A stretch of DNA of 64,000 nt from Gloeobacterales cyanobacterium (lineage in GTDB: Bacteria > Cyanobacteriota > Cyanobacteriia > Gloeobacterales > PMM-0068), in NCBI GenBank assembly GCA_038245785.1, contig JBBRSB010000020.1, positions 1 to 64,000 on the forward strand. Reading direction: 5' to 3'. Under the pieces are notes generated by a model, which was not told where the DNA came from, searched no databases, and was given only the letters and a program-made list of their open reading frames with translations. Shown here piece after piece: positions 21,112-44,185 of the stretch. Every line of letters starts with the position of its first letter. The first letter of the stretch is position 1. Made by a program: the position numbers and the translations under genes.

Positions 21112-21693
21112 TTATCTAGCCTGTAAAACTTGGTTCGCCGTTAATTCCAAGTCGGGAAATAGCTGCGAAATGATTTTCTCATCACTCGCATACTCTTTTG
21201 TCTCATACAATCCCTCATTCCATACCAAAATCGAAACTTTCAAACTGAGTGGATCGACAATCCAGTATTCAGAAATGCCTAATGCTGCATACTCTGACTG
21301 TTTATACCGATAATCGATGGCCTGTGAACCAGGACTCACTACTTCAACCGCTAATAGAGGGGTAGTCTGAAGTACCGCAGAGATATTCCTTAATTCAGCC
21401 CATTGGCTACTCGTCATCACACACAGGTCTGGATCGCGAGAGGTATTGATACCTGTGCGCACCCCAACATCCCTTTTCGCAAGCCATGGTAGCTCACGCC
21501 TTCTAATTTCCCCTTTGAATACATCCTGGAGAAATTCAATGATGTCGGAATGGAGTCCTGTAGGCAGTGGAACCATCAGTAATGCTCCATGTGCAAGTTC
21601 ATAGCGATTGTCTGTACCATCCTCTAAAACCAAATATTCTTCAAAAGTTAAACTGGCTGACTTAGTAGAAACCATTTTCTTTCCTTCACTCAT
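21112..21693 (-). CDS. Uma2 (DUF820) PD-(D/E)xK nuclease-fold protein
   Basis: LTFEEYL, RYEL..G, PDL, LAVEVVSPG, EYWIVDP; ATGA overlap with cmr6 stop. Confidence 0.9.
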   Translation of the reverse strand: MSEGKKMVSTKSASLTFEEYLVLEDGTDNRYELAHGALLMVPLPTGLHSDIIEFLQDVFKGEIRRRELPWLAKRDVGVRTGINTSRDPDLCVMTSSQWAELRNISAVLQTTPLLAVEVVSPGSQAIDYRYKQSEYAALGISEYWIVDPLSLKVSILVWNEGLYETKEYASDEKIISQLFPDLELTANQVLQAR

Positions 21694-23660: not shown

Positions 23661-24055
23661 GTATCGTCTGCCTCCCCAAGAATAGCGGATGCCCAGAACG
23701 ACCATTCCCTCGCCAATTCAACAGCTAAGTGATTCAGCGCTGCATATTCTTTGAGCGGCATATTGATTAAACTTCCAGGATCATTGACAGTGAATCCTTG
23801 TCCGCTAAACGTTTTTAGTTTTTCGAGGAATTTCTGATACACCTTACCTTTGTACTTCGTATCTTCTGCTTTACCTGCCAGGAACTTAACAGCGTCCCCG
23901 CTGAGTCGATGTAGACCCCAAGTAGAAATATAAGCGGTTAGCCCTTGTATCAAACCGCTAGCTTTTTTGTGATGCGAACTTGCCAAATCTTTTTTGAGTT
24001 CAGTAAGAGCTGCATAGGCTTCCTTACTAAAATTCCGAGAGTCTAGTTTGAGCAT
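23657..24055 (-). CDS. cmr5: Cmr5 small subunit
   Basis: 132-aa helical protein between cmr4 and cmr6; YISTWGL, LAREWSFWA. Confidence 0.8.
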   Translation of the reverse strand: MLKLDSRNFSKEAYAALTELKKDLASSHHKKASGLIQGLTAYISTWGLHRLSGDAVKFLAGKAEDTKYKGKVYQKFLEKLKTFSGQGFTVNDPGSLINMPLKEYAALNHLAVELAREWSFWASAILGEADDT

Positions 24056-24058
24056 GGT

Positions 24059-29146
<5,088 letters not shown>

Positions 29147-29240
29147 AAAAGACCTACGGGAAAATACGGAGAATGTAAAGTGAGGCAAGCGTATCCAGAA
29201 AGTGCTTGATATCTGTCAAAACGAATACTTTATTCACAAT

Positions 29241-29361: not shown

Positions 29362-29580
29362 ATGAATTGGGTGAGGCTTTTGCTGCTTCGTCACGTTTCG
29401 GGAGCGGCAGTGAATGGTTTGATTACCCTAGTCATTTTGCTCATTGCTCCTCTGGGGTTAGCGTCCGTTTTGACCTGCACGGCGTTGATCAGTTTGAGCA
29501 CTTTGGTCGTGGGTGTAGCGGCAGATGGGGTGCAGTACTGGTTAGAGGATGGCTCTACTGGGATTGACAAGACTCAGTGA
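29362..29580 (+). CDS. csx18: Csx18 small membrane CRISPR-associated protein
   Basis: AVNGLITLVILLIAPLGLA motif; directly upstream of cas1. Confidence 0.8.
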   Translation: MNWVRLLLLRHVSGAAVNGLITLVILLIAPLGLASVLTCTALISLSTLVVGVAADGVQYWLEDGSTGIDKTQ

Positions 29581-30569
29581 TGGCAACCCTATATTTGTTG
29601 GACCAAGGGTGCCGAGTCGCCCTCAGGGATGAAGCTTTACTGGTTTATCAGCAAACAGACCTGAAACAGACGGTGCCGCTACCAACTTTAGAGCGTGTGC
29701 TGGTTTTTGGCAGTGCGCATCTGACTACGCCTGTAATCCGAGCCTGTTTAAGACGCGAGGTGGGGATAGGCTATCTATCTCGTCAGGGGCGCTGCTATGG
29801 TCGGATTTTACCGATTCGTTTGGGCTATCGTTCTCTATTTCGGTTGCAACAATCGCTAGGAGCGGAAGCAGCGCTGGGCGCAGCACGGGCGATGGTCACC
29901 GCCAAGATTCAAAATAGCCGGGTTTTGCTGTTGCGTTCTCAAAGACGAAGACCGCTGCCTGCTCTAGAACAGGCGATTACTTTTCTAGATTATTTTGCTC
30001 AAAAGGCTCGTGAGGCTTTGAGTCTAGAAACTTTACGAGGATATGAAGGGGCAGCGGCTGCTCAGTATTTCCCTGCTTTTGGTCTAATGCTGACGGAACC
30101 AGATTTTGTGATGACCCAAAGAAGTCGTCGTCCCCCGCTGAATCCGGTAAATACACTTTTGAGTTTTGGCTATAGCGTCCTCTGGAATCATCTTCTCGGA
30201 CAGATAGAACTGCAGGGATTAGATTCCTATCTGGGGATCTTCCATACAGCCAATGACCGTCATCCAGCTTTAGCTTCTGATTTGGTGGAGGAGTTTCGTT
30301 CACCGATTATTGATTCTTTAGTAGTTTGGCTAATTAATAGTCGAGTAATCCAGGTTATGGATGACTTTGAATTTCGTGATGGGGGTTGTTTCCTAAATGA
30401 AAGAGGAAGGCGCAAGTTTCTCAAGTACTTCATTCAAGAGATGAACGAACTTGTTCAGGTGGATAATTCTATGCTTCCACGTTGGGCTTTATTGGAGAAG
30501 CAGGTGAGCGCTTTCAAAAGGTTTTTGTATCATCCTGAAGAAGATTATCAGCCCTATCGGATACGTTAA
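29580..30569 (+). CDS. cas1: Cas1 (no RT or Cas6 fusion)
   Basis: TLYLLDQG, LRGYEGAAA.QYF, RRPP.NPVNTLLSFGY, LASDLVEEFR. Confidence 0.97.
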   Translation: MATLYLLDQGCRVALRDEALLVYQQTDLKQTVPLPTLERVLVFGSAHLTTPVIRACLRREVGIGYLSRQGRCYGRILPIRLGYRSLFRLQQSLGAEAALGAARAMVTAKIQNSRVLLLRSQRRRPLPALEQAITFLDYFAQKAREALSLETLRGYEGAAAAQYFPAFGLMLTEPDFVMTQRSRRPPLNPVNTLLSFGYSVLWNHLLGQIELQGLDSYLGIFHTANDRHPALASDLVEEFRSPIIDSLVVWLINSRVIQVMDDFEFRDGGCFLNERGRRKFLKYFIQEMNELVQVDNSMLPRWALLEKQVSAFKRFLYHPEEDYQPYRIR

Positions 30570-30845
30570 ATGCTGTATATTATTACCTACGATATTCCCA
30601 GTAATAAGCGAAGAAATAAAGTAGCTAAGCTGCTAGAAGGCTATGGTAAAAGGGTGCAGCTTAGTGTTTTTGAGTGCGAATTGCCGGAGAAGTTATTAAT
30701 AGAATTAAAGACAAAGCTTCGTAAGAAGGTTGATATGACTGAGGATTCAGTGCGCTTCTATGTCATATCCAGTCATACCTTGGGTCAGGTGGAAATATGG
30801 AATGGACCTCCTGTAGCGGAATCTGCGAAATCGGTAATAGTCTGA
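30570..30845 (+). CDS. cas2: Cas2
   Basis: YIITYDI..NKRR.KVAKLLEGYGKRVQLSVFEC, DSVRFY. Confidence 0.97.
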   Translation: MLYIITYDIPSNKRRNKVAKLLEGYGKRVQLSVFECELPEKLLIELKTKLRKKVDMTEDSVRFYVISSHTLGQVEIWNGPPVAESAKSVIV

Positions 30846-30856: not shown

Positions 30857-30892
30857 ATTGCTTCTTTTCAGAGAGGTCGAACTAATGACAAA
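30857..30892 (+). repeat. Solitary degenerate CRISPR repeat downstream of cas2
   Basis: ATTGCTTCTTTTCAGAGAGGTCGAACTAATGACAAA, 27/36 identical to array repeat, stem still pairs. Confidence 0.75.
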
Positions 30893-30948
30893 TCAGGCAA
30901 AAAGTTGACGTTAAATCATACAGGTCGATTTAGACCAGGAGATGTGAA

Positions 30949-31194
30949 ATGAGAGCAATTACTGGTGTTTTTATTTTTCTACCTGCCATGGCCCTCGTGA
31001 TAGGTATGGGTATCGGTTCGCCACTTTTAGGTACGCTGGCCTGTGTTTTTATAGCATGGCAGGAGGCATCACTTTGCAGCAAAGTATTTCCTACTGAGTT
31101 TCAGCTTCCTGTAACTATAATAATTATGTGCGGAGTTTGGATTTTGGTGCACCAAAAAGAATCTGAAGCAAATAAGGAAAATCAAGATGTTTAA
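30949..31194 (+). CDS. Small hydrophobic (2-3 TM) hypothetical protein
   Basis: 81 aa, AGGAG RBS 7 nt upstream, mostly hydrophobic with charged tail. Confidence 0.6.
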   Translation: MRAITGVFIFLPAMALVIGMGIGSPLLGTLACVFIAWQEASLCSKVFPTEFQLPVTIIIMCGVWILVHQKESEANKENQDV

Positions 31195-31527
31195 TCCAAT
31201 TTATTTCTTTTTCATGAGTGATCAAAGCCTGCTATCCTGAACAGTCAGTAGGTATACAATTTAGCTTCCATGGCATTGATTCCTTTAGTTTGGCGAGGCT
31301 CTCCAAAATTGTGTTCAAACACTTGGCACAGGTCAACCTATTTAACCTCTTTTGGGTTGTTTATCCTGTGGTCAATAATTTTTAGGGTAGCCGCCATATT
31401 TTATGTAGTACCACTTGTCTATTACAGAAGGTTCAATTCCTTCTGACTTAAGAACTTCGGTTGCAGTATGAAAAGGACCTCCCACAGCAAAATTTACGGA
31501 ATTGGCGGTGATTTGATGATGTTTGGA

Positions 31528-31705
31528 GCGATGGGGTCACCAAAAAGCCTAAAGGCTCATTCTTGCGCTGACCCCGTCGATACCTATCCAGGCAAGACTT
31601 TCAGCCATTTTTTTGTGACAAAACCCCCGCTGTACGAGAGAAAATTCAGACCCCGTCGCAAACCGCCTCTAGACACCCGACCTGGCAAGGGTTTTAATGG
31701 AGGCT
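31528..31705 (+). promoter_or_regulatory. CRISPR leader 2
   Basis: Close copy of 17064-17242, directly 5' of first repeat. Confidence 0.85.
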
Positions 31706-33839
31706 ATTGCTTCCCTTCGGGGAAGTTGAACTAATGGAAACAATCATTTCAAACTCTCCTATTGTTGTTTTTCAGTATTGCTTCCCTTCGGGGAAGTTGA
31801 ACTAATGGAAACTATATTCCATGACAAATCTCCAATGAAAAGAATGAATTCAAAAGAAAAATTGCTTCCCTTCGGGGAAGTTGAACTAATGGAAACGACA
31901 CCTACCAGTCTGAAAAGGAAAGCGCCCGTTCCGGGTTATTGCTTCCCTTCGGGGAAGTTGAACTAATGGAAACTATTTATGCATAAAAAGAGAGCGCCCT
32001 TCGGTAGTTAAAATTGCTTCCCTTCGGGGAAGTTGAACTAATGGAAACAAGGAAGCAGAATCATCTGCTTCTTTAGATGAGCTTATATTGTTAATTGCTT
32101 CCCTTCGGGGAAGTTGAACTAATGGAAACTGCTTAAAGCTTTGTCAACCTTCTCGGAGGTTGATATTGCTTCCCTTCGGGGAAGTTGAACTAATGGAAAC
32201 AGACCTTCAGGGATAGGCCCTATACATTCTTCCCAGATATTGCTTCCCTTCGGGGAAGTTGAACTAATGGAAACGGTGATTTAGAAAACCTTGGAGTTCT
32301 CCCCAGAGAAAAGACATTGCTTCCCTTCGGGGAAGTTGAACTAATGGAAACAGCCCGCAGCAAAGCTATAATTTCCGTGGTTACAATTGCTTCCCTTCGG
32401 GGAAGTTGAACTAATGGAAACTACCAAACTTCTGGATTGCTTGGCGAAGTGTGAGACAATTGCTTCCCTTCGGGGAAGTTGAACTAATGGAAACTCTCCT
32501 ACTTCTCAAGAATGGGAAGTGTTATCTGATAAATTGCTTCCCTTCGGGGAAGTTGAACTAATGGAAACACCAAGCGCAATGCCCAAGTGTACACTTTCTA
32601 AAAATGAGCTATACTATTGCTTCCCTTCGGGGAAGTTGAACTAATGGAAACTACCAAGGGTTACATAACCTTTAACCGTCTTATTTATTCCATAATTGCT
32701 TCCCTTCGGGGAAGTTGAACTAATGGAAACTCTTTTGTAGTCAATCAACGCGTTATCTAGGCATCGATTGCTTCCCTTCGGGGAAGTTGAACTAATGGAA
32801 ACTAAACGTGCCCTACTACAGCACCTTTAGGCGTGTAGACATTGCTTCCCTTCGGGGAAGTTGAACTAATGGAAACTTGTAATGCGGCGCGCCAGAGGAC
32901 AAGTTTCAGGAATATTTCTTCACTTCGGGGAAGTTGAACTAATGGAAACACCGTAAATTTACTTAGAATTTCACGCATAATAATGATTGCTTCCCTTCGG
33001 GGAAGTTGAACTAATGGAAACTTTAGGACCGTAGCAGACGGCATAATTTCCGGATAAAGTATTGCTTCCCTTCGGGGAAGTTGAACTAATGGAAACCTTG
33101 TTATGAGGAACCTCAATGAAAAAGAAGAAGACAATTGCTTCCCTTCGGGGAAGTTGAACTAATGGAAACCGGATAAGGTGCTCTTCAACATAGTTGATGA
33201 TGATATTTCGGCATTGCTTCCCTTCGGGGAAGTTGAACTAATGGAAACATCAGCTTCTTCAAACACCTCATCGCCCCATCGTGACTCCAATAACCCTATT
33301 GCTTCCCTTCGGGGAAGTTGAACTAATGGAAACCAGTTGAGCAATCAGCACAACCAGAATTAACGCCCCATTGCTTCCCTTCGGGGAAGTTGAACTAATG
33401 GAAACTTGCGGAGCGCTTGATAGAGGTCTTCAAACTTCTCAAATTGCTTCCCTTCGGGGAAGTTGAACTAATGGAAACACAGTTAAAAGTAATTCTGCGC
33501 CCAGCATGAAAGCTGCATTGCTTCCCTTCGGGGAAGTTGAACTAATGGAAACTTAAATCTTTCATTGCAGTACAAAAAACAAAAGGATATTGCTTCCCTT
33601 CGGGGAAGTTGAACTAATGGAAACATTAATCAGGTCTTTGGCTACTTGCACTTTGTACACGTATTGCTTCCCTTCGGGGAAGTTGAACTAATGGAAACAA
33701 CAGTTACGCCATCACGAGCGAAAGCCTTGATGATATTTTCCTATTGCTTCCCTTCGGGGAAGTTGAACTAATGGAAACAGATAGTCTTTGTTGAAGGCAA
33801 TTTCATAATCACCTGTGATTGCTTCCCTTCGGGGAAGTT
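31706..33839 (+). CRISPR. CRISPR array 2: 28 full repeats (variant at 32914-32949) plus 5' 22 nt of a 29th; 28 spacers of 34-49 nt
   Basis: Same 36-nt repeat as array 1; last repeat cut after ...GGGGAAGTT at 33839. Confidence 0.98.
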
Positions 33840-33848
33840 TCGGAAAGC

Positions 33849-33878
33849 TTGCCCGTAGCATGAATTCCGTGCTACTAT
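33849..33878 (+). promoter_or_regulatory. higBA promoter with overlapping operator
   Basis: TTGCCC-N18-TACTAT with GTAGCA-N9-TGCTAC palindrome; start codon immediately downstream (likely leaderless). Confidence 0.6.
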
Positions 33879-33881
33879 GCT

Positions 33882-34178
33882 ATGGTGATAGCTTCATTTA
33901 AAAATGATGGTGTAGAAGATATCTTCAACGGTGCAGACACTAAAGTTGCTCGTAAAACCTGCCCCATGTCTTTATGGAAAGTCGCTGCTCGAAAACTCGA
34001 TCAGATTGACTCCGTTGCAACATTAAATGAATTGCGTCTACCGCCAGGTAACTTCTTAGAAGCCTTGTCCGGTGATCTTAAAGGGCAGCATAGTATCCGT
34101 ATCAACGACCAGTACCGAATCTGTTTTGTATGGTCAGAGCAAGGACCTGCTCAAGTAGAAATTGTTGATTATCACTGA
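33882..34178 (+). CDS. higB: HigB toxin (plasmid maintenance killer family)
   Basis: IASFK, LRLPPGN.LEAL.GD.KGQHSIRINDQYRICF, VEIVDYH. Confidence 0.92.
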   Translation: MVIASFKNDGVEDIFNGADTKVARKTCPMSLWKVAARKLDQIDSVATLNELRLPPGNFLEALSGDLKGQHSIRINDQYRICFVWSEQGPAQVEIVDYH

Positions 34179-34199
34179 ATCGTTATAGAGAGTACCGTC

Positions 34200-34505
34200 A
34201 TGGTTCGCATTCCTACACACCGTTCCCCCACGCATCCCGGCGAGATGTTGCTAGAAGAGTTCCTAAACCCCACGGGCTTGACGCAGCGTGAACTTGCCGA
34301 TGCTATTCACGTCCCGTATCAGCGCATCAATGAGATCATCAATGGACGTCGAGGGATTACACCAAGTACCGCACTTCGGCTAGAGAAATTCTTTGGAATG
34401 TCGGCAGGCTTCTGGATGAATCTTCAACTCCGCTGGGACCTCTATTATGCCCAACAGACTGAGCAAGAAACGCTCAAATCCATTCACCGCTATGTATCAG
34501 CTTGA
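34200..34505 (+). CDS. higA: HigA antitoxin (HTH)
   Basis: PTHPGEMLLEEFL.P, ITPSTALRL..FFG.SA.FWMNLQ. Confidence 0.92.
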   Translation: MVRIPTHRSPTHPGEMLLEEFLNPTGLTQRELADAIHVPYQRINEIINGRRGITPSTALRLEKFFGMSAGFWMNLQLRWDLYYAQQTEQETLKSIHRYVSA

Positions 34506-34531
34506 TGCCTAGAGGTTGTTCGGTAAACCGA

Positions 34532-34541
34532 TAATGGAAAC
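34532..34541 (+). repeat. 3' end of split CRISPR repeat
   Basis: TAATGGAAAC equals repeat positions 27-36, 26 nt after higA stop. Confidence 0.7.
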
Positions 34542-34592
34542 CCATTAAATCCTCCAATACTGGTGGACTTCCGATCTGTTTTTTTCTGGTCT

Positions 34593-34628
34593 TATTCTTC
34601 TGCTCAGTGAAGTTGAATTGCTAGAAAG
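34593..34628 (+). repeat. Strongly degenerate CRISPR repeat
   Basis: TATTCTTCTGCTCAGTGAAGTTGAATTGCTAGAAAG, about 23/36 identical, core GAAGTTGAA kept, one spacer length after 34541. Confidence 0.5.
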
Positions 34629-34651
34629 TTCTGGAAAATTTTACGTTAACT

Positions 34652-34683
34652 GTTTCCCCCCAAAGTTGGGGGGCTAGGGGGCG
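34652..34683 (+). repeat. GC-rich cyanobacterial REP-like hairpin element
   Basis: CCCCCC-AAAGTT-GGGGGG-CTAGGGGGCG. Confidence 0.55.
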
Positions 34684-34988
34684 AATTTATCACTCTTCTA
34701 GAAGATGATGTGCCTACCCATGAGGGAGCTAAACTCCATGCAGACAGTGCTCCAAGACTTGAAGAGTTAGGAGGTTCTGAGCCTCAAGCACAAGATATTC
34801 CTCGCCGTCGTTATGACAGCTAGACGAGCATAATGATTCCTGCTGATACCCTCAACCATTCCATTCCACCAATGTAAAACTTCTGGGCGATTGACCCTTT
34901 TCCATCCTTGATGCTTTGACGTGATTGATTTAGAGTGGCTTGCAATAACCTAAGCGTTGGGTTAAGCTGGGCGTGTGCAGGAGTGAGT

Positions 34989-35234
34989 ATGCCAACGGTT
35001 CTTAGGAAACAAGGTTTTCGAGTCGTCATTTATTCCAACGATCACTTGCCTTCTCCTGTCCACGTTTTTAAAGGAAGCGGTGAAGTGCGAATTGAGTTAG
35101 GAGATGAGGAATCGGCCCCTAAGCTATTGACCGTCAGTGGACAAATCAGCGACAAAGATGTAGGCAAAGCGCTGTATCTCGTGAAGGAACACCAAGTCAA
35201 ATTACTAGCAAAATGGAGAGAAATCCATGCGTAA
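34989..35234 (+). CDS. DUF4160 protein (putative toxin partner)
   Basis: MPTVLR..GFRVVIYSNDHLP.PVHV, LLAKWREIH. Confidence 0.85.
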   Translation: MPTVLRKQGFRVVIYSNDHLPSPVHVFKGSGEVRIELGDEESAPKLLTVSGQISDKDVGKALYLVKEHQVKLLAKWREIHA

Positions 35235-35709
35235 CGATAATCTTGTAATTGACGCAGCGTTGCAATCGCAGATCAATAAAGCTCGTCAAGCAGGTGAAAC
35301 GCTAGATGAAAATGAACCGCGTGCGGTAAAGGCCTGGTACGAACTCATCTCAACAAGGGTTTTCATTGAACTAAGGAATGGCGTTGTGATTGGGTTTCCT
35401 TTTAAACTGCTGCAAGGATTAGAATCGGCAACTCCTGAGCAGATTGCAGAAGTTGAAGTCACACCCTCTGGCTATGGTCTTCACTGGGAAAGTCTGGATG
35501 TAGACCTAGGAGTACCGCAACTGGTTGCGGGTATTTTTGGGACAAAAGCCTGGATGACAGAATTAGGACGTCTAGGTGGACAGGCAAAATCAGCCGCGAA
35601 AGAGAAAGCTGCTCGCGAAAATGGTAAGCGTGGAGGCCGACCTCGGAAGCCTGAAACTGTGCAGGAGGATACTACTAGACCGATAAAACATTCGATTGCT
35701 TCCCTTTGA
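35227..35709 (+). CDS. DUF2442 protein (putative antitoxin)
   Basis: LQGLESAT.EQ, GLHWESLDVDL, AARENGKRGGRPRK; last codons and stop lie in a CRISPR repeat half. Confidence 0.85.
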   Translation: MRNDNLVIDAALQSQINKARQAGETLDENEPRAVKAWYELISTRVFIELRNGVVIGFPFKLLQGLESATPEQIAEVEVTPSGYGLHWESLDVDLGVPQLVAGIFGTKAWMTELGRLGGQAKSAAKEKAARENGKRGGRPRKPETVQEDTTRPIKHSIASL

Positions 35710-35711
35710 GG
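35695..35711 (+). repeat. 5' half of split CRISPR repeat
   Basis: ATTGCTTCCCTTTGAGG vs repeat 1-17 ATTGCTTCCCTTCGGGG (15/17). Confidence 0.7.
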
Positions 35712-35855
35712 GTGCGAAGAGTCGGTGGGATGTGCCGAAGATTCTTGATAGGTATGTGGAGAGCAAGATGAATAGTGAATTAATTATGCATTTGACATAA
35801 TGAAGAAAGGCGAAGGTATTCGGACGGTCGAGACATTTTAAGAGAGGTCGGGAGA

Positions 35856-36518
35856 ATGGTAGCAGCGCTCGATTCGATTTCAGTTGCAGAAATTGATTTA
35901 CAGGAAGGCAATGTGCTGGTGCTGCATGATGTTTCGTGGGAGCGCTATGAGGCGATCGTGGCTACCTTACAAACTCGCCACAACTATCGAACTGCGTATT
36001 TAGATGGAGTGTTGGAAATTATGGCTCCGATGCCTGCCCATGAGCGTCCCCATCGCACTATTGGCTATTTTGTGACTGCATTACTCGATGCGGAAGAACG
36101 AGACTGGGAGGATTTTGGGGCGACGACGTTTCGCAAGAAGGAAAAGCGGGCGGGGTTGGAGCCGGATACTTGTTTTTACGTGGATGAGAATGCGCGAGTT
36201 GTTCGCGCTTGTATGGAGCAGATGGATTTGGCGGTCTATCCGCCACCGGATTTGGCAATTGAAGCGGATGTCACTTCTGGGACAACGTTAGAAGTGTACT
36301 TAAGATTGCAGGTGCCGGAGGTTTGGATTTGGCGCAAGAATGAGCTAAACATTAATCTGTTGCAAAATGGGAAATATGTGGAATCGCAGCAGAGTCAGGT
36401 ATTTCCCAACTTTCCGATTCAGGAGTTGATTCCGCAGTGGCTCGATCGGGCGTTGCAAGATGGTACGAGTAAAGCCCTTCGCGATATACGAAAGTTGTTG
36501 ATCAAGGCAACGTTGTAA
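35856..36518 (+). CDS. Uma2 (DUF820) family protein
   Basis: VSWERYE, YLDGVLEIMAP.P.HE, GLEPDTCFY, PPPDLAIE, VPEVWIW. Confidence 0.9.
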   Translation: MVAALDSISVAEIDLQEGNVLVLHDVSWERYEAIVATLQTRHNYRTAYLDGVLEIMAPMPAHERPHRTIGYFVTALLDAEERDWEDFGATTFRKKEKRAGLEPDTCFYVDENARVVRACMEQMDLAVYPPPDLAIEADVTSGTTLEVYLRLQVPEVWIWRKNELNINLLQNGKYVESQQSQVFPNFPIQELIPQWLDRALQDGTSKALRDIRKLLIKATL

Positions 36519-36520
36519 TT

Positions 36521-36737
36521 TCATGTGGCGCCTCTGAGCGAATTACGAATCCGTGCCTCGTTGCGGAGTTTAGCGAGAATAGATGGGACGTTAGCTTGAG
36601 AGGTCATAGGTGAGAGCCTGAAGAATCGGGCGGAGTCTGCGTTCGGCACCACACATCCGCGCAGTTTCGGTGAGTTTTAGGAGGTTCGGTTTCGGCTTGC
36701 GACGCTTGAGATAGTTCTTGAGTCCCTCCAGGAAGAG
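36521..36737 (-). pseudogene. Remnant of AbiEi-AbiEii (type IV TA) junction
   Basis: Minus strand LFLEGLKNYLKRRKPKPNLLKLTETARMCGAERRLRPILQALTYDLSS* (AbiEi C-terminus-like) overlapping MTSQANVPSILAKLRNEAR (AbiEii N-terminus-like, ATG 36607), both truncated. Confidence 0.6.
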
Positions 36738-36757
36738 GAAGTCGAATCAATGGAAGC
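36737..36757 (+). repeat. 3' half of split CRISPR repeat
   Basis: GGAAGTCGAATCAATGGAAGC vs repeat 16-36 GGAAGTTGAACTAATGGAAAC (17/21). Confidence 0.7.
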
Positions 36758-36837
36758 TAACGGGTGCCGTTACTTTACAAGGTCGAGGATGGGTTGTTGT
36801 ATCAGATTACGCCCTGCCGCAGGTTTGAAACCATCCC

Positions 36838-37503
36838 CTACAACCAGTTGCCTTTCCAATCAAAATATTCGAGTGGGGCAAGTCGTTTTTTGTAATCGTA
36901 AGCCGAAGGCTCGAGTGTGGCGTATCCAGGGTAATAAAATGTTTTGCCCAGCGCAATTGAATACTTAATACTGCATAAAATTAAGTACACGCCAAGGCTG
37001 TGTTTTGATTCCTTTGGGTCGTAAATCGAGTAGATGCTCGATGTGCTGCTTGCGCCAATGTCGAGGAAGGTCACGCCAATCAATCGTCCTTCTTTGAAAA
37101 GCGCAAGTTCTTTGGTTTCGCATGGCACTCGAGCGGGATCAAATCCGAGAAAAGAATAGAGCGAATCGGGAACGTTTTCTGTGAAGCGCTGCCTGTGCAG
37201 GGCAAACAGTTTGCGTTTTTCGAGGTCAATGAGCGCGTCACGGATGACCAATTCAAAGGAGGCATTTCGTTTCAGCACTCGAGCTTGACTGTTGCTAGGC
37301 TCAAAATGCTCGAGCCGCATTCTGAGCGGCATCACGGTTTTGAAGCCGTGAGCCTCCATCATGCGACTATAACGAAAAAAGTACGAACCAAAATGCCGCC
37401 AACCTCCAGCCCAAGCACGATCCATCAATTCTGGACTGGCAAGCTCGAGTTCGCCCGATTCGTCGATGTTTGGCACGGTCATAAGTTTTGGAGTATCGCT
37501 CAA
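36838..37503 (-). CDS. Arginyl-tRNA-protein transferase-like (ATE/Bpt family)
   Basis: WAGGWRHFG.YFFR, F.PSNSQARVLKRN, SSIYSIYDP, SLGVY.IL, YYPGY, YDYK. Confidence 0.8.
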   Translation of the reverse strand: MSDTPKLMTVPNIDESGELELASPELMDRAWAGGWRHFGSYFFRYSRMMEAHGFKTVMPLRMRLEHFEPSNSQARVLKRNASFELVIRDALIDLEKRKLFALHRQRFTENVPDSLYSFLGFDPARVPCETKELALFKEGRLIGVTFLDIGASSTSSIYSIYDPKESKHSLGVYLILCSIKYSIALGKTFYYPGYATLEPSAYDYKKRLAPLEYFDWKGNWL

Positions 37504-37584
37504 GCCTCAGTGTTTTTCTCCCAGGGCAAGATTATCATGTCACGCTCAAGCGTCCGTTCGTGACCTTTTCCCTCCTTATTATTT

Positions 37585-37801
37585 GATTGAGGTAACACCA
37601 TCTGGCTATGGTCTTCACGGGGAAAGTCTGGATCTAGGAGTACCAGAACTGGTTGCAGGTCTTTTTGGTACACAAACCTGGATGAAAGAGTTAGGACGTC
37701 TAGGCGGACAGGTAAAATCAGCCGCGAAGGAGAAAGCTGCTCGCGAAAATGGCAAGCGTGGAGGCCGACCTCGGAAGCCTGAAGCTGTGCGGAAGAGTTG
37801 A
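37585..37801 (+). pseudogene. 5'-truncated second copy of DUF2442 gene
   Basis: High nucleotide similarity to about 35451-35660 with 6-nt deletion; no N-terminal half. Confidence 0.8.
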
Positions 37802-37860
37802 ACGCAGGGTTTACCATACTAAAACGTAGACTTGGCCTAACCGCAATCTATCACGTAACT

Positions 37861-38187
37861 TCAATCTGCAATCAACTTACTGCTTACTAGACGATTTAGA
37901 CTTATGCCCTGTTCAGCCGCTCGGGTCGCCAGTTCCCGATGCTGTTCAGGAGGAATTCTGACCATGAACCTGCCGCTGTATTGTTTTTTAGATAAGGGGG
38001 TTGGAATAGGCTCATTGTGAGCCGCTAAATCAAGAATGCATTCTTGTACTAGAGCAACAATTCCAGAGAAGGCTTTTTGGTGATCCTTATCCAGCCAACT
38101 CATGCCAGGAAATTCAGCACATAAGCCAACGAACTCTTCATCCTCTTCAGACCAGAACACTCGGTAGGTATAAAATTTAGCGTCCAT
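37861..38187 (-). CDS. hicB: HicB antitoxin
   Basis: YTYRVFWSEED.EFVGLCAEFP, YSGRFMVRIPPE.HR.LA..AAEQGISLN; ATG at 38187. Confidence 0.9.
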   Translation of the reverse strand: MDAKFYTYRVFWSEEDEEFVGLCAEFPGMSWLDKDHQKAFSGIVALVQECILDLAAHNEPIPTPLSKKQYSGRFMVRIPPEQHRELATRAAEQGISLNRLVSSKLIAD

Positions 38188-38432
38188 CACATTGATTCCT
38201 TTTTCTTGATAGCGGCTAAGACTTGCTTTACTTGGTACGGTTTTCCCATGCCTTTTTTCGGCTGGATGTTGACGTATGGCTCTCCTTCCCAAAGCGTCCG
38301 ATAAAAGCGATGGCTCCCGCTGCTTTGTCGAGGTTCTCCAAAATAGTGGTCACACACTTTGCACAAGTCAGAGAACTTAATGCCTTTTGGGTTATTCTCC
38401 ATGCTGGCAACAATTTTTTGGATATTAGCCAT
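38187..38432 (-). CDS. hicA: HicA toxin
   Basis: NNPKGIKFSDLCKVC.HYFGEPRQ.SGSH, KPYQVKQVL. Confidence 0.88.
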   Translation of the reverse strand: MANIQKIVASMENNPKGIKFSDLCKVCDHYFGEPRQSSGSHRFYRTLWEGEPYVNIQPKKGMGKPYQVKQVLAAIKKKESM

Positions 38433-38544
38433 ACTTTATATGGTATCAATATTAGTATCAATATATCATCACTAAAAGCTCAATAGCCACTGAAACCATA
38501 GCGTCAGTAGTCTTGGTAAATCTAGCTAAGTGTTAATCTGGTCA

Positions 38545-38739
38545 TGAACTTGCTGATGCCATTCACGTCCCGTATCAGCGCATCAATGAGATCATCGATG
38601 GGCGTCGAGGGATTACACCTAGCTCTGCGCTTCGGCTAGAGAAATTCTTCGGAATGTCGGCAGGCTTCTGAATGAATCTCCAGTTGCGATGGGACCTCTA
38701 TGACGCCCAAGAGACTGAGTAGGAAGCACTCAAATCTAT
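38545..38739 (+). pseudogene. Truncated higA copy with nonsense mutations
   Basis: Similar to 34289-34483; TGG>TGA at 38669-38671 and TAG at 38720-38722; 5' third missing. Confidence 0.85.
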
Positions 38740-38812
38740 TTGTTATACACAGCTTGAGAAATTTAGTTAAGATTGCGAGCGGGAGCTTAAATTAACTCTT
38801 CAGAGGCAAACC

Positions 38813-40150
38813 GTGAGTTTATCGAGACGAGGTTTTTTTACTTTAGCGGGTTCGAGTACTGCTAGTGTGATTTTAGCTGCACCTTTGAAAAACTTGTATG
38901 CTAAAACTTTGTCTAAACAATCGATTAAGGGAAGAGGTTTTGGAAAACTTATCCCCGATCCTAATGGCATCTTAGATTTACCCAAAGGGTTTAAGTATAG
39001 AGTGCTCTCTAAAACTGGAGAGATGATGAGCGATCGCACCAAAGTACCAGATAAAAAAGACGGTATGGCGGCTTTTCCTGGGACAAACGGTACGACTATT
39101 TTGGTGAGAAATCACGAACTCAAGCCAGATCCAACCCAAAAAATAGCAATCGTCAATGCCGCAGATTCTTGTAAATATGATAAATTAGCGCCAGGGGGAA
39201 CAACTACTTTAGTTATCGACAATAACTATCAAGTTCTCCAACAATACGTATCTCTAAGTGGTACTATCCGCAACTGTTCTGGTGGGACGACTCCCTGGGG
39301 TTCTTGGATTAGTAGCGAAGAAGATGTTTCTACTCCGATTACTGTTGCTAATAATTCAAGCGATCGCATGAAAGAATCTTTTCAAGTATCTCTCAAACAC
39401 GGATATAACTTTGAAGTTCCTTCTCATGGAAAAGTTACTACTCCAGTTCCTTTAAAAGCAATGGGCAGATTTCGACATGAAGCCATCGCTGTCGATCCGC
39501 AAACTGGATATATTTACCAAACTGAGGATCGAGAAGACAGTTGTATCTATCGTTTCATCCCTACACAAGCAGGAAAATTGGAAGCAGGTGGAACTTTAGA
39601 AGCTTTGGTAATTGACGGAATGCCAAAGATGAACACATCTGTTGATTTTCCTATGGACGAACCGAAAAAAGTTACATGGATCAGACTAGAAGATGTCGAT
39701 CCCAACGAAGATACTCTACGTCAAGAAGCACAATTTAAAGGTGCAGCAATTTTCAGACGTGGAGAAGGAATGTGTTACGGCAATGGCGAAATTTTTTGGA
39801 CTTGTACTAATGGTGGTAAAGCGAAAGTGGGTCAAATTTTTCGTTACAATCCTAAAGCCGAAACAGTCGAACTCTTTGTTGAGTCTCCCAGCTCTGAGGT
39901 TTTAGACTTCCCTGACAACTTGATTCTATCTCCTTTCGGTCATTTAATTGTTTGCGAAGATGGTAAAGGCGAACAGTTCGTTACGGGAGTAAATCCCCAA
40001 GGAGAATGTTACCATTTCGCACGTAATGCTTTAAATAAAGCAGAGTTTGCAGGGGTCTGTTTTTCTCCAGATGGGAAAACAATGTTTGTCAATATTTACG
40101 AACCTGGTATTACTCTGGCTGTTTGGGGAAATTGGCAAGCTGTGTTGTAG
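38813..40150 (+). CDS. phoX: PhoX-family (DUF839) Tat-secreted alkaline phosphatase
   Basis: SRRGFF Tat motif, LVRNHE, RNCSGGTTPWGSWISSEE, MGRFRHEA, PDNL, EFAGVCFSPDG. Confidence 0.85.
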   Translation: MSLSRRGFFTLAGSSTASVILAAPLKNLYAKTLSKQSIKGRGFGKLIPDPNGILDLPKGFKYRVLSKTGEMMSDRTKVPDKKDGMAAFPGTNGTTILVRNHELKPDPTQKIAIVNAADSCKYDKLAPGGTTTLVIDNNYQVLQQYVSLSGTIRNCSGGTTPWGSWISSEEDVSTPITVANNSSDRMKESFQVSLKHGYNFEVPSHGKVTTPVPLKAMGRFRHEAIAVDPQTGYIYQTEDREDSCIYRFIPTQAGKLEAGGTLEALVIDGMPKMNTSVDFPMDEPKKVTWIRLEDVDPNEDTLRQEAQFKGAAIFRRGEGMCYGNGEIFWTCTNGGKAKVGQIFRYNPKAETVELFVESPSSEVLDFPDNLILSPFGHLIVCEDGKGEQFVTGVNPQGECYHFARNALNKAEFAGVCFSPDGKTMFVNIYEPGITLAVWGNWQAVL

Positions 40151-40215
40151 TAATTTTTCTCAGTACAGCAACCTTCCCAGAAAAACAATTCTGCTATTGA
40201 ACAGGAATAAGGACG

Positions 40216-40251
40216 ATTACTTCTCTTGGGAAAAGTTGAACTAATGGAAAC
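40216..40251 (+). repeat. Orphan CRISPR repeat
   Basis: ATTACTTCTCTTGGGAAAAGTTGAACTAATGGAAAC, 31/36 identical, last 19 nt perfect. Confidence 0.9.
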
Positions 40252-40596
40252 TCTTGGCTCCCTTGAGATTGGGACTAGTGCTTTCGAACACCTATTTCCG
40301 ACATTTTGCGATCGAAACTGAGGGCGACACCGGGTGAAGTAGCTGCTTGCGATTGACTTGATACTGAATATAAAGTTAAACTGCCCAGTGTAATGGCCGT
40401 TGCACTAAGGCCTAGCATCAGTTTTTGTCTGGAGAACATTGATTATCCAATTGATTGGCATCATTTTGCAATAAAGTGACAAAATAATCTAGCCTATTGA
40501 AATACTTTCTTAAGTAGACCGCCTGGATCGCCCTATAATTTATTTCTTGGCTCTCTTTGCCAAAGAGGACTAGCGGCTTTGATAAACGCTCAGCAC

Positions 40597-41035
40597 TTGA
40601 CACTCCCACGGCTGCAGCTTGTGCTTTGCACGGGCTAAGCCCTACGCGAAGCATAAGCGCGTGGGATTCTTGTTTGAACGAGCTACCTTTCTAAATTTTA
40701 ATCCCCACAAGGGAATTAGCCCCAAAAAGCCCACTCCGAAGGGTAGGCTCTAGCGCAAAAGAAGGCAAGACTATTCGTTCATGTACTCGTTTAACTGGTG
40801 CCCAAGCCCACCATCAGGGTTATGGATCATGGGTATCCGGAAAATCTTTTCAAGCTTCCAAGAGTCTTAGCTAAATCTGCCTGGACAAACACCTGTGAAA
40901 CAAGTGGCCGAACCCTATGCGGTCGTCCATCCCAAAGTGCAGGTGAGCAGAGGTCTCACCAATAGCAAGCTAGCTTTATAGGCAAAGATGAGGGGCTAAT
41001 TAAAGTGGAATCTGACTGAACCTTTGAAAACTTAG
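40597..41035 (-). mobile_element. Non-autonomous IS200/IS605-type right end with omegaRNA-like non-coding region
   Basis: Minus strand ends AGAATCCCACG...GCCGTGGGAGTGTCAA (typical IS605 right-end hairpin plus TCAA); no tnpA/tnpB ORF; 5' boundary uncertain. Confidence 0.6.
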
Positions 41036-41268
41036 CAGAGTAAAAAAAACACAAAATTGAGGTGTTCCTCAGCTTAAAACTGATAAAAACAGAAGCCTAG
41101 AAGAAATGAATTGGTGTTTGCATCTAAAACCATTGCCATGACACTTCAATCAGACATTAACAAGCCTCTTGTCATAAATGTTTGCTAGAAGCACATAAAG
41201 TATCTTTATTGTGACATCATCGTTCAAAATTGGCATTATTCTATTCATAAATTTGTTGAGGAGCCTCC

Positions 41269-41940
41269 ATGCGAAAGTTAATTCGAGGTTTGCGCGAGTT
41301 TCAGGATAACTATTTCCCATCACATTTAGAACTGTTTGAGAAGCTGGGCATGGAGCAAAAGCCCAGAGTTCTATTTATTACCTGTTCAGATTCGCGGATT
41401 GTGCCAAACCTGCTTACCAAAGCGGATGTGGGCGAACTGTTTATTATCCGCAATGCGGGTAATATCATCCCTCCCTACGGGACCTTGAGTGGCGAGGGTG
41501 CAACCATAGAGTATGCCATTCAATCGCTTGAAATTGAGCAAATCATCGTCTGTGGACATACCCACTGTGGAGCCATGAACGGCTTATTAAAGCTGGACCA
41601 ACTGCGTGAAGAAATGCCGATTACCTATCAATGGCTAAAACTGGCTGAGGGAACAAGACGATTGGTGAAAGAAAACTACACGCACCTCATGGATAAAGAA
41701 TTGCTGGAAGTCACCAGTGCGGAAAATGTATTGACGCAGATCGATAATCTTAAAACCTATCCGGTAATACGGTCGCGCCTTTACCAAGCCCGGCTAAATA
41801 TTTATGGTTGGGTGTATAACCTCGAAACGGGTCAAGTACTGGCCTATGACTCAGTGAGTCATTCCTATGTGCCGCCTCAACATCAGTTAGTAGATGAATT
41901 GCCTGAGCCATCTTTACCTTCAGATTTGTCAAATCTGTAA
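41269..41940 (+). CDS. Beta-class carbonic anhydrase (CcaA/CynT-like)
   Basis: FITCSDSR, IRNAGN, VCGHTHCGAM zinc ligands. Confidence 0.93.
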   Translation: MRKLIRGLREFQDNYFPSHLELFEKLGMEQKPRVLFITCSDSRIVPNLLTKADVGELFIIRNAGNIIPPYGTLSGEGATIEYAIQSLEIEQIIVCGHTHCGAMNGLLKLDQLREEMPITYQWLKLAEGTRRLVKENYTHLMDKELLEVTSAENVLTQIDNLKTYPVIRSRLYQARLNIYGWVYNLETGQVLAYDSVSHSYVPPQHQLVDELPEPSLPSDLSNL

Positions 41941-42026
41941 TCATCTATGGGAGTTGCTACCCATTGACTTCTATCGCGGACAGCCCTACCCGTCAGAGGT
42001 TCTGGGGTGTTAACTATTGGATACGC

Positions 42027-43412
42027 CTAGTCTAATTTTTCAAACCTTGCCTGAAAAAATCTAAGGTACTTTGGTTCATAAATCATTTTTAATCCTTTTA
42101 TATGGTGGCGTTGTTCATATACCCTACCTGCCGATTCAGCAATCACATCCATGTGTGCCTGGGTATACACACGCCGGGGAATGGTAAAACGGACCAGTTC
42201 CAGTTTGGGATAGTAGTTTTCACCATTAGCTTTTCTGCCAGAAGAAACAATTCCACGTTCCATGGTTCTTACACCAGAATCCAGATACACTTCTGCAGCC
42301 AATGTTTGAGCAGGGAAATCATCCTGCGGGATATGGGGTAAAAACTTTTTAGCATCCACAAAAATGCCATGTCCACCGATGGGTTTTACGATCGGTATTT
42401 CGTATTCCATCATTTTTTTACCAAGATAAATAACCTGTCCCACCCGTGCACGGATATGGTCATCGGATACACTCTCCTTTATACCAATTGCCATAGCTTC
42501 CATATCTCTTCCTGTCAGACCACCATAGGTATGCAAGCCCTCATACACCACCACCATGTTTCTTGCTTCTTCAAAAACATCCCAGTCATTAATGGCAAGA
42601 AATCCACCGATATTCACCAATGCATCTTTTTTAGCGCTCATCGTGGCACCATCGGTGTACGAACAGATTTCCTTGACAATTTCTTTTATGGGTCTGTCCC
42701 GATATCCTTCTTCTCTTTGTTGAATAAAGTAAGCATTTTCTGCCACTCTGGTCATATCGTGAATGATGCGGATGCCATGCTTTTCAGTCAAGGCTCTTAG
42801 CTCTTTCAAGTTTTGCATACTGATAGGCTGACCACCTGCCATGTTCACACTGGTGGCCATACTGATATAGGGAATTTTTTTTGCACTATATTTTTTGATA
42901 AGCCCTTCTAATTTATCTAAGTTGACATTCCCTTTGAACAAAGATTCACTCTCCGGGTCATGAGCTTCATCAACAATTACATCTTCAAATTTTCCACCAG
43001 CCAGTTCCTGGTGCAGACGGGTAGTCGTGAAGTACATATTGCCAGGAATAATATCGCCTTTCTTAATTAAAACCTTTGATAAGATGTTTTCGGCTCCACG
43101 GCCCTGGTGGGTAGGGATGAAATATTTGTAGCCATAAATCTCTTTTACTGTTTCTTCTAAGTGATAAAAATTACGGCTGCCTGCATAGGCTTCATCACCC
43201 ATCATCATTCCCGCCCACTGGTGATCACTCATTGCAGAGGTGCCGCTATCGGTGAGTAAATCAATATAAACATCTTCTGACTTGAGAAGAAAGGTATTAT
43301 AGCCAGCTTCTTGCAAAGCACTTTTTCTTTGGGCCAAAGTTGTCATCTTTAGCAACTCAACCATTTTTATTTTATAAGGTTCGGCCCAGCTTCTATTAGA
43401 ATGCTCACTCAT
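42027..43412 (-). CDS. tpl: Tyrosine phenol-lyase
   Basis: AEPYKIK, IDLLTDSGT, MSAKKD (PLP Lys); YFTTTR and LRFF residues typical of TPL rather than tryptophanase. Confidence 0.85.
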   Translation of the reverse strand: MSEHSNRSWAEPYKIKMVELLKMTTLAQRKSALQEAGYNTFLLKSEDVYIDLLTDSGTSAMSDHQWAGMMMGDEAYAGSRNFYHLEETVKEIYGYKYFIPTHQGRGAENILSKVLIKKGDIIPGNMYFTTTRLHQELAGGKFEDVIVDEAHDPESESLFKGNVNLDKLEGLIKKYSAKKIPYISMATSVNMAGGQPISMQNLKELRALTEKHGIRIIHDMTRVAENAYFIQQREEGYRDRPIKEIVKEICSYTDGATMSAKKDALVNIGGFLAINDWDVFEEARNMVVVYEGLHTYGGLTGRDMEAMAIGIKESVSDDHIRARVGQVIYLGKKMMEYEIPIVKPIGGHGIFVDAKKFLPHIPQDDFPAQTLAAEVYLDSGVRTMERGIVSSGRKANGENYYPKLELVRFTIPRRVYTQAHMDVIAESAGRVYEQRHHIKGLKMIYEPKYLRFFQARFEKLD

Positions 43413-43499
43413 TGTTTTAGATTTTAATTTAATGAAATTTAGTCTAGCAAAAAATATCTCAACATCGGTGCTTCTTTAATAATTTTAATTCTTTTATTT

Positions 43500-43536
43500 A
43501 TTGCTTCCCTTCGGGGGAAGCTGAATTAATGAGAAC
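43500..43536 (+). repeat. Orphan CRISPR repeat at right edge of island
   Basis: ATTGCTTCCCTTCGGGGGAAGCTGAATTAATGAGAAC, first 17 nt perfect, 32/36 plus one G insertion. Confidence 0.9.
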
Positions 43537-43645: not shown

Positions 43646-44185
43646 ATGACTTTTACTTTTGAATCTGCTATTGAGGAAGCTCAAAGTCTCCTAGACTCAG
43701 AGAATTTAACAGAAGCAGAGCTAGTAGCTAGAACTAAAACGCTTCTAGAGACAGAGGTGGGTGCTCGGGGTTTATTTGTGGTCTATCTGACGGGAGATAC
43801 TCCCTTGGCAGACCAAGCTCCGGATTGGTTGCTCACCCTCTTAGCACAGGCTCCAGATTCAGCGTCTGAACTGTTGGTGAAAAATTTGGCAATGTCTACA
43901 GCAACAGGCCTTGCCCATGAAGCCCAAGGGAATCTAGAACAGGCTGATGGCTCTCGGCAAGTGGCACAGCGCACCACCGCACTCCTACAGGCTCTAAGTC
44001 ATCCTCCTTTTGGTCCTGTTCCCGCTTTGGAGCAAAGAAAAACGGCTATGCTTCAGACCCTAAAAGAAAAACAGGGAGTGTACAGTCCTTTCCTAGATCG
44101 TTGGGGCTATAATCCCGCTCAACGGGAAGCGATTGGTCGTGCGTTTCAAAACGTCACTGATCCCCCTAAGACGGATCTGGCTTGA
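43646..44185 (+). CDS. Conserved cyanobacterial hypothetical protein
   Basis: GARGLFVVYLT, LLVKNLAMSTA, FLDRWGY; GGAG RBS. Confidence 0.7.
   Translation: MTFTFESAIEEAQSLLDSENLTEAELVARTKTLLETEVGARGLFVVYLTGDTPLADQAPDWLLTLLAQAPDSASELLVKNLAMSTATGLAHEAQGNLEQADGSRQVAQRTTALLQALSHPPFGPVPALEQRKTAMLQTLKEKQGVYSPFLDRWGYNPAQREAIGRAFQNVTDPPKTDLA

Follow-up and report, generated by a model that had tools for sequence, protein, structure and literature searches.

Fragmented repeats, toxin-antitoxin modules and stray genes at the far end of a type III-B CRISPR island in a Gloeobacterales cyanobacterium

The DNA stretch analysed here (the window) comprises 64,000 nucleotides, positions 1–64000 of contig C20 in the 255-contig genome G000 of a Gloeobacterales cyanobacterium, and carries a type III-B CRISPR island with two arrays. 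Downstream of array 2, between 33.8 and 43.6 kb, pieces of the array repeat recur among unrelated genes. This part is probably the far end of the island, fragmented and in decay, and a hot spot where DNA inserts and recombines, the repeats acting as passive homology. The repeat relics, the gene content, the structural variation among close relatives, the collapse of an array in a sister genome and the insertion of a repetitive extragenic palindromic (REP)-like element were all shown.

Array 2 (31706..33778, plus strand) consists of 28 full repeats, identical or nearly so, each 36 nt long (window 31706–31741) with a 6-bp stem and a 4-nt loop; the repeat-spacer period in the arrays of this island is 70–85 nt. 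Right after the last spacer stand the 5' 22 nt of a repeat (positions 1–22; 33818..33839, plus strand). Either array 2 closes here with an end repeat truncated in the ordinary way, or a repeat was split and this is its left half; the piece looks like the former, and its truncation is on the 3' side, as expected of an array trailer. An ungapped whole-genome scan with the repeat on both strands (2 × 5.0 Mb, scoring +2/−2) found 46 positions scoring at least 26 outside the island, which corresponds to 0.045 expected per strand per 9.79 kb. The plus strand of 33.81–43.6 kb contained six loci at or above this score (33818, score 44; 34593, 26; 35695, 26; 36722/36737, 26; 40216, 52; 43500, 34), and the minus strand contained none. 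The excess over the genome background anticipated in the original prediction was thereby confirmed, and the tail shares with an array trailer its same-family direct repeats, on the array strand only.

The individual pieces differ in strength. A profile built from the repeats of the genus (nhmmer) gave 751 hits at E ≤ 1000, of which 692 were outside the island. The 33818 piece (score 16.1, E 0.061) and the degenerate relic at 34593..34628 (plus strand, about 61% identity; profile match 34596–34626, score 13.4, E 0.45) both exceeded all of this background except for a copy on contig C5, the next-best background hit scoring 11.0. The piece at 36737..36757 (plus strand, repeat positions 16–36, 17/21) scored 10.3 (E 4.2), inside the genome-wide background range and significant only for the 9.7-kb search space, and its complement at 35695..35711 (plus strand, repeat positions 1–17, 15/17) scored 6.2 (E 86) and was convincing only within such a small search space. 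For the two stand-alone repeats at 40216..40251 and 43500..43536, both on the plus strand, the profile E-values are circular because both copies sat in the training set; their plain identities are 31/36 and 32/36, respectively, the latter with one extra G. Two further pieces that had been claimed as repeat-derived were at chance level when taken alone: the 10-nt match to the repeat 3' end (positions 27–36) at 34532..34541 (plus strand) has an ungapped score of 20, for which 1.6 matches are expected per strand, and the repeat-like stretch at 42000..42024 (plus strand; 20/26, gapped) is equalled by three gapped scores elsewhere in the window. The claim that repeat pieces recur on the array strand was, thus, upheld genome-wide for 33818, 34593, 40216 and 43500, locally for 35695 and 36737, and not for 34532 and 42000 taken alone. 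Homology between the junction pieces 34508–34541 and 41985–42024 was also considered and was dropped, as their score of 14 was matched or exceeded by 20% of background windows.

The identity of the relics ranges from about 61% (34593) to 86–89% (40216 and 43500), and their spacing in the tail, 0.7–3.4 kb, has no regular array period. Further relics are present inside the island at 18144, 18243 and 30857. Three relics (18144, 30857 and 36737) carry the variant 'GTCGAA', a form that the active repeat has in the order-level relatives G006 and G010. Because their decay differs so widely and some of them carry this variant, the relics are of mixed age and do not stem from one process. The repeat is not confined to the island, contrary to what had been stated: a lone copy of the genus-ancestral type (27/36) lies at C5:54778 (L016 6779–6814), within a second island of toxin-antitoxin (TA) and defence type (G000:C5:48000–60000, L016) that encodes DUF5615/PIN, Uma2, an HTH_37 antitoxin, FRG, a HEPN-like protein and an IS3 transposase. 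The same C5 island includes hicB fragments, among them a paralogue at C5:52278–52626, with 87% nucleotide identity to the hicB of the window. Another repeat-like sequence (26/36) was noted on the minus strand at C12:104209–104244; a tnpB (OrfB_IS605) gene lies some 5 kb away, at C12:99394.

The DNA behind array 2 also received a dispersed element. Two halves of a REP-like sequence occupy 34542..34686 on the plus strand (left half within 34542–34575, right half 34655–34686), about 80 nt apart and with the 34593 relic in between. The element is about 70 nt long, contains two G/C hairpins (CCCCCAATNCTGGGGG and CCCCCCAAAGTTGGGGGG) and recurs in the genome at least 16 more times (for example C2:302224–302309, C11:94499–94552 and C8:92211–92264), some of which, like the one in the window, hold 30–80 nt of unrelated DNA between the hairpins. 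The 51 nt between 34541 and 34593 were, therefore, ruled out as a spacer, being the left half of this element. A survey of 80 loci of the same repeat family from other cyanobacteria yielded 15 repeats in other arrays that keep only the 5' part, with ends spread over repeat positions 15–30. A splitting hot spot at the 3' foot of the hairpin, suggested by positions 22 and 17 in G000 and by position 20 in loci L133 and L145, was rejected because these 15 truncated repeats end anywhere in this range.

The genes between the relics were identified by a Pfam scan of the 26 open reading frames (ORFs) in 29.5–47.6 kb, supplemented with NCBIfam models. The first is a higB-like toxin gene with its HTH_3 antitoxin gene (33882..34505, plus strand; Pfam), followed by a DUF4160/DUF2442 gene pair (34935..35709, plus; Pfam), whose last DUF2442 codons extend into the 35695 relic, a Uma2-family PD-(D/E)XK gene (35856..36518, plus; Pfam) and an arginyl-transferase-like (ATE_C) gene (36838..37503, minus; Pfam and NCBIfam). 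Then come a partial second DUF2442 (37587..37801, plus; 89% identical to 35453–35662), hicB with a small hicA-like partner ORF (37861..38432, minus; Pfam match for HicB and none for the partner) and a broken second higA, termed higA', with in-frame stops (38545..38740, plus; 88% identical to 34289–34484). The last three are phoX (38813..40150, plus; Pfam), a beta-carbonic anhydrase gene (Pro_CA; 41269..41940, plus; Pfam) and a tyrosine phenol-lyase gene, tpl (42027..43412, minus), whose product scored 749.7 bits in NCBIfam against an equivalog cut-off of 720.7. Cargo is, therefore, present on both strands, with the ATE-like gene, hicBA and tpl on the minus strand and the rest on the plus strand. 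As judged from the sequence, the internal duplicates of higA, DUF2442 and the hicAB fragments point to repeated recombination.

Most of the gene list in the original prediction was recovered by these searches (higBA, DUF4160/DUF2442, Uma2, the ATE-like gene, hicB, phoX, carbonic anhydrase and tpl), except for two entries. The supposed AbiE remnant was not, the only PF08843 match in the genome being on contig C1. Nor was the supposed IS605 end: OrfB_IS605 has no match in the window, its four matches in the genome are all on other contigs, none of them was hit by blastn of the region, and an Rfam search of 16–46 kb gave nothing at E ≤ 0.1. No Y1_Tnp domain was found among the scanned ORFs, PF01797 having had no search of its own. 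The 26 ORFs included no integrase, as had been predicted, and likewise no recombinase, transposase, HUH domain or phage gene detectable with Pfam. The segment 40252–41268 had no blastn match elsewhere in the genome. The G+C content is 0.414 for tpl and 0.409 for phoX, compared to a genome mean of 0.478; the phoX value is at about the 5th percentile of the 1-kb windows of the genome, and phoX has no DNA match in the same-genus genomes G001 and G002. Tpl is present in six of the 401 genomes of the class, and its homologues in the five other genomes had no repeat within flanks of about 1.5 kb, apart from one chance-level match. The orthologue of the carbonic anhydrase gene in G001 adjoins genes that G000 has on contig C15. 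From this G001 context, the patchy distribution of tpl and the low G+C content of tpl and phoX it follows that the cargo is a mixture of relocated and probably acquired genes.

The variability of the region became apparent when contigs of sequencing runs (Logan) were compared with positions 29500–47500. Run X1 covered this stretch nearly completely, and smaller parts were found in runs of other studies, of which X2, X3 and X5, from three different studies, represent relatives at about 90–95% identity; parts of the stretch uncovered in these three were not counted as absence. In X2, a 5.3-kb contig extends from the 5' region of tpl as far as 43503, continues through 36 unrelated letters into 41197–41940 (carbonic anhydrase) and, after another 61 letters, into 43646–47500. 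The order is, thus, tpl – carbonic anhydrase – hypothetical gene, with tpl and the carbonic anhydrase gene swapped and the 43500 repeat absent. Elsewhere in X2, the 35 nt of 34508–34542, including the 10-mer of the repeat 3' end, are joined straight to 42029 at the end of tpl, so that a clean repeat 3' end stands before tpl at the spot of 42000–42024; 34831 is joined to 36822 with 48 letters between them; and hicBA lies beside DUF2442 with the filler ACTAATGCA at the joint. In X3, tpl is deleted internally (42064 to 43158) and the deletion of 38649–39616 cuts off the 5' end of phoX, and the succession tpl – repeat – hypothetical gene is retained with the 43500 repeat one G shorter. The same junction is contiguous in X5. 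The 43500 copy is, thus, present in X3, spanned by a contiguous junction in X5 and absent from X2, from G001 and G002 and from the metagenome loci L025 and L026. The region is clearly hypervariable among close relatives.

The breakpoints themselves mostly ignore the repeats. Among the joints listed, 14 were outside arrays and provided 28 breakpoint ends, of which three lay within 5 nt of the edge of any claimed relic and one within 5 nt of a statistically solid relic. The expectation that cargo borders in relatives would follow repeat positions failed, accordingly, for the remaining 25 of the 28 ends. In array 2 itself, one X1 contig skips 387 nt (31704–32092), from the first to the sixth repeat, which suggests that a variant without five spacers coexists and that repeat-repeat deletion is active.

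Taken as the decaying end of the array, the locus may be explained as follows. Array 2 would end at about 33839 with an end repeat reduced to its 5' 22 nt, and beyond it TA modules, Uma2, the REP-like element and the genes phoX, carbonic anhydrase and tpl would have accumulated between leftover repeats of older array parts. The trailer and the DNA past it are presumably dispensable, so that a TA module, REP element or stray gene landing in them can persist; the repeats would tolerate insertions because they are located in DNA without essential function. They would have no enzymatic role in attachment and would act as direct, hairpin-forming homologies of 36 bp, which probably decay once severed from the active array. 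Such direct repeats may occasionally recombine, leading to spacer deletion, to collapse of an array to one repeat or to reordering of cassettes by duplication and deletion, and most rearrangements in the region would be illegitimate and unrelated to the repeats. The order of these events and the contribution of repeat-repeat recombination are what we infer.

Several observations weigh against this explanation. Complementary repeat halves flank higBA (positions 1–22 and 27–36) and Uma2 (positions 1–17 and 16–36), and these fit insertion into a repeat; a random insertion into an array would strike a repeat only about half the time. The tpl gene is placed exactly between the weak repeat-like stretch at 42000–42024 and the 43500 repeat, and several cargo genes stop 0–90 nt ahead of a relic. 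The three breakpoint ends close to relic edges (34542, 42029 and 43503) compare with about 0.5 expected, in a tally made from the joints listed, with 9 of the 24 joints and 200 of the 232 contig pieces outside it. Finally, the copies at 40216 and 43500 are not simply independent collapsed arrays, because no leader remnant lies beside them; collapsed arrays with their own leaders were ruled out in general, since blastn of the region against the genome detected no third leader-like sequence.

In an alternative reading, cassettes would move by recombination between CRISPR repeats: two direct repeats would recombine and a circle of cargo plus one repeat would leave and re-enter at another repeat, as in a slow integron without an integrase. 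We regard this as unlikely. It agrees with the uniform orientation of the relics next to genes facing both ways, with the swap of tpl and carbonic anhydrase in X2, where one junction coincides with the opening bases of the 43500 repeat, and with the repeat 3' end directly before tpl and the filler ACTAATGCA at another joint of the same run. The C5 island, with its hicB paralogue, Uma2 and lone ancestral-type repeat, fits as well, and integration of viruses via solitary repeat units and array repeats was proposed earlier, according to the available text of PMC8616872. On the other hand, besides the 25 of 28 ends away from relics, the 36 letters past 43503 in X2 are not repeat-like, the left border of the carbonic anhydrase segment (41197) is not at a repeat, the identities of the relics are low for present-day RecA-type recombination, and no circular form was seen, nor any empty site whose repeat had been rejoined. 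A wider version, in which the trailer repeats are portable recombination sites and units of cargo plus repeat are excised, reinserted and exchanged between strains, perhaps via hairpin breaks, would make the decaying array end a platform on which genes are shuffled without an integrase, stocked with TA modules and with such niche genes as tpl, phoX and carbonic anhydrase; we rate it as slightly less likely still. If it were true, the natural borders of cassettes would include CRISPR repeats besides attC sites, and immunity loci would be linked to the flow of accessory genes.

The insertion of gene-sized DNA at the repeat by an enzyme, be it Cas1-Cas2, an HUH transposase that recognises hairpins or a Uma2-like nuclease of the PD-(D/E)XK family, appears very improbable, even with cas1-cas2 adjoining array 2, complementary repeat halves around higBA and Uma2, and a clean 20|16 repeat split around a nuclease-family (DUF4351) gene in L133. 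Cas1-Cas2 acts on the leader-adjacent borders of a repeat, and the entire repeat is duplicated in the process. The higBA and Uma2 inserts, in contrast, are at the trailer, and they are flanked by halves of repeats split internally, not by a pair of complete repeats near the leader. The absence of HUH, integrase and transposase domains from the 26 ORFs and of OrfB_IS605 from the window, together with the scatter of truncation points over positions 15–30 in the 15 other arrays, also speaks against it. Uma2 was considered separately as a homing nuclease for repeats, within this same low-odds proposal, and was set aside: four other Uma2 copies located by tblastn (on C1, C3, C4 and C7) had no repeat-like match with a score of at least 24 nearby in the whole-genome scan.

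An integron is a row of unrelated genes, many with a hairpin-forming repeat copy close behind, in an order that varies by strain. The likeness of the present locus is evident in its unrelated genes, many of which have a copy of one hairpin repeat close behind, and in its strain-variable order. It differs in having no IntI, attI or attC-type site, in genes on both strands and in breakpoints that are mostly off the repeat; judged by sequence, with no attC model run, the 6-bp stem and 4-nt loop of the repeat lack the attC layout. The original prediction had taken the repeats for attachment sites of an integron-like capture, and this was not supported: there is no recombinase, the cargo is on both strands, only 3 of the 28 breakpoint ends listed are near relics, truncation has no fixed site and the presumed 'spacer' is REP-like.

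That the lone repeats (40216, 43500 and others) are kept for a function, either as sites for Cas6 or another RNase or as one-repeat CRISPR RNA (crRNA)-like genes that, similar to CreTA, would control the cargo or protect the locus, seems quite improbable. The 40216 copy has a full 3' handle and a compensatory stem change, the 43500 copy is retained in X3, and a conserved one-repeat element exists downstream of cas2 in the same repeat family. Against this, X2 is without the 43500 copy, and no repeat is present upstream of the corresponding hypothetical gene in G001, G002, L025 and L026. When the 45 nt downstream of ten relics were compared with the genome, only matches to dispersed repeats or chance matches of 13–17 nt were obtained, and no terminator follows the relics. 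Type III stand-alone repeats are, moreover, rated non-functional in the available text of Shmakov et al. (2023; PMC10120712). The relics are lone and, thus, lack the two-unit layout of mini-arrays or CreTA-like modules with a promoter-complementary spacer.

The conserved element after cas2 is a separate observation. In at least 16 cyanobacterial loci (L107, L112, L113, L115, L118, L133, L138, L141, L145, L146, L152, L155, L156, L170, L181 and L183) a stand-alone repeat variant is located 1–1.4 kb after cas1-cas2, and most of the lone repeats in the surveyed loci of this repeat family are of this kind. Cas1 and Cas2 were confirmed with Pfam in all six loci tested (L113, L115, L118, L133, L146 and L152) and deduced from ORF size in the others. 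The element has a conserved stem (GACTTC/GAAGTC), a variable loop and an intact 3' handle (..AATGGAAAC), followed by about 40 partly conserved nt and, in many cases, by a hairpin resembling a terminator and a T run. It lies upstream either of the next array, at a distance of about 350 nt, or of cmr2. On these sequence features it looks like a stand-alone crRNA-like gene. The window has a degenerate counterpart of it, a stand-alone repeat variant of the 'GTCGAA' type (27/36; 30857..30892, plus strand) located 11 nt past the cas2 stop codon.

An artefact, in the form of chance matches or a chimeric metagenome contig, is hardly credible. Two of the eight claimed pieces are at chance level alone and the assembly is in 255 contigs, but the background statistics speak against chance and the X1 contigs show no sign of misassembly. 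They tile 33752–47500 without differences and at an even depth of 55.7–61.8, with breaks that include the higA/higA' duplicate, and cover cas1-cas2 (29500–31664) at a depth of 59; array 2 appears only as fragments among the pieces listed. This tiling is not independent of the assembly, because X1 is probably its source run. The junction of tpl, the 43500 repeat and the hypothetical gene is, in addition, shared by X3 and X5 from other studies.

Comparison with more distant genomes was consistent with fragmentation of arrays in the lineage. The same-genus genomes G001 and G002 share about 80% DNA identity with G000 in synteny blocks of 1–5 kb and cannot show cargo-free states of the locus. In G001, the orthologues of window 13136–17060 are followed by one lone repeat at the place where G000 has array 1, and degenerate repeat copies lie beside gyrA and other housekeeping genes, a carbonic anhydrase paralogue and TA genes. 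In G002, an ion-channel gene stands between two degenerate repeats on the same strand, and the complete genome G008 of the order has one lone copy (pattern search with up to three mismatches). In the same repeat family, L133 has a repeat cleanly split 20|16 by a 1.1-kb insert with the DUF4351 gene, and a Phd/YoeB pair directly after an array; in L131, two Uma2 genes separate an array from a lone repeat that is almost perfect and lies 6.4 kb downstream. Genes between repeats, thus, occur elsewhere, with truncations at no fixed site. A search of metagenome contigs with the protein of the hypothetical gene returned at best 73% amino acid identity (L025 and L026), without repeats.

The right-hand limit of the variable tail is formed by this hypothetical gene (43646..44185, plus strand), followed by Rrf2 and then recF. 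The block is syntenic in G001, G002, L025 and L026, in agreement with the predicted resumption of conserved genes after the last repeat, and a Ser/Thr protein kinase gene that G000 has between Rrf2 and recF (45003–46400) is missing there in all four. The synteny break at 43.6 kb was at one time considered as a sign of repeat-mediated rearrangement and was dropped; it is uninformative because synteny blocks of G000 with its genus are only 1–5 kb long everywhere.

Further upstream in the island lies array 1 (17243..18179, plus strand), in which 12 repeats are followed by a degenerate end repeat (18144–18179; 27/36). The DNA behind it (18180–18265) matches dispersed sequences on C65, C5, C28, C34 and C4 and also holds further repeat-like pieces on both strands. 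The type III-B effector genes Cmr2/Cas10, Cmr3, Cmr4 and Cmr6/Cmr1-like occupy 19346..29188 on the minus strand (NCBIfam) and are followed by cas1 and cas2 (29577..30845, plus strand; Pfam and NCBIfam). The array 2 leader (31529..31705, plus strand) is homologous to that of array 1. Between the cas2 side and this leader lies extra DNA (30893..31517, not assigned to a strand) with an ORF of 81 amino acids and a hicAB relic (31236–31413) resembling 38152–38448. In G002, the leader comes directly after cas2 without this DNA, and G000 is, hence, considered to have about 665 nt extra between cas2 and the leader. None of the 38 extracted spacers had a match longer than 20 nt elsewhere in the genome that would indicate self-targeting.

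The original prediction knew of no description of such a system; the phenomenon is, however, not undescribed, as array fragmentation in cyanobacteria, degraded stand-alone repeats beside type III loci and hot spots of cargo and TA shuffling are all published. According to the available text of Reimann et al. (2020 preprint; 10.1101/2020.04.14.041012), repeat-spacer arrays in cyanobacteria have become fragmented and dispersed, and the fragments retain the parent repeat; those orphan arrays have multiple spacers and are still processed by Cas6, in contrast to the single and partly truncated repeats with genes between them seen here. In the available text of Shmakov et al. (PMC10120712), an excess of ectopic repeat copies is linked with CRISPR loci, mini-arrays have TA and other 'cargo' genes beside them, the loci are called 'hotspots of gene shuffling' with relatives free of cargo, type III flanks have an excess of degraded repeats with no conservation in type III, and lone repeats are considered possible recombination targets. 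The functional cases described there are two-repeat mini-arrays with a spacer matching a promoter, mostly of types I-D, I-F and V-A, and thus differ from the lone or half repeats of the window, for which no target was found. The proposal of Faure et al. (2019), as presented in the available text of PMC8616872, is that DNA integrates into a CRISPR locus when a solitary repeat unit and the repeats of an array undergo homologous recombination; it likewise treats the repeat as homology for foreign DNA, but deals with viruses carrying the repeat and not with TA and metabolic cargo. TA pairs interleaved with CRISPR modules are described for Sulfolobales in the available text of Garrett et al. (2015; PMC4390879), in a different phylum and with TA families other than those found here. 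An integron-like use of CRISPR repeats was not found described in the literature on genes inserted within arrays, as far as this was covered, many subscription papers being outside it. The locus fits phenomena that are already described, namely arrays that become fragmented, repeats that stand alone and CRISPR loci with hot spots of cargo.

The one-repeat element after cas2 may be the more promising lead, as published surveys reported stand-alone repeats of type III loci not to be conserved. Read as the decaying end of array 2, the locus itself would be a well-documented example of the ageing of a CRISPR array, in which function is lost, TA modules, REP elements and stray genes are gained and the whole is reshuffled between close strains. 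As such, it would be of use for the annotation of fragmented arrays and lone repeats in cyanobacterial metagenome-assembled genomes and would caution against taking half repeats for attachment sites.

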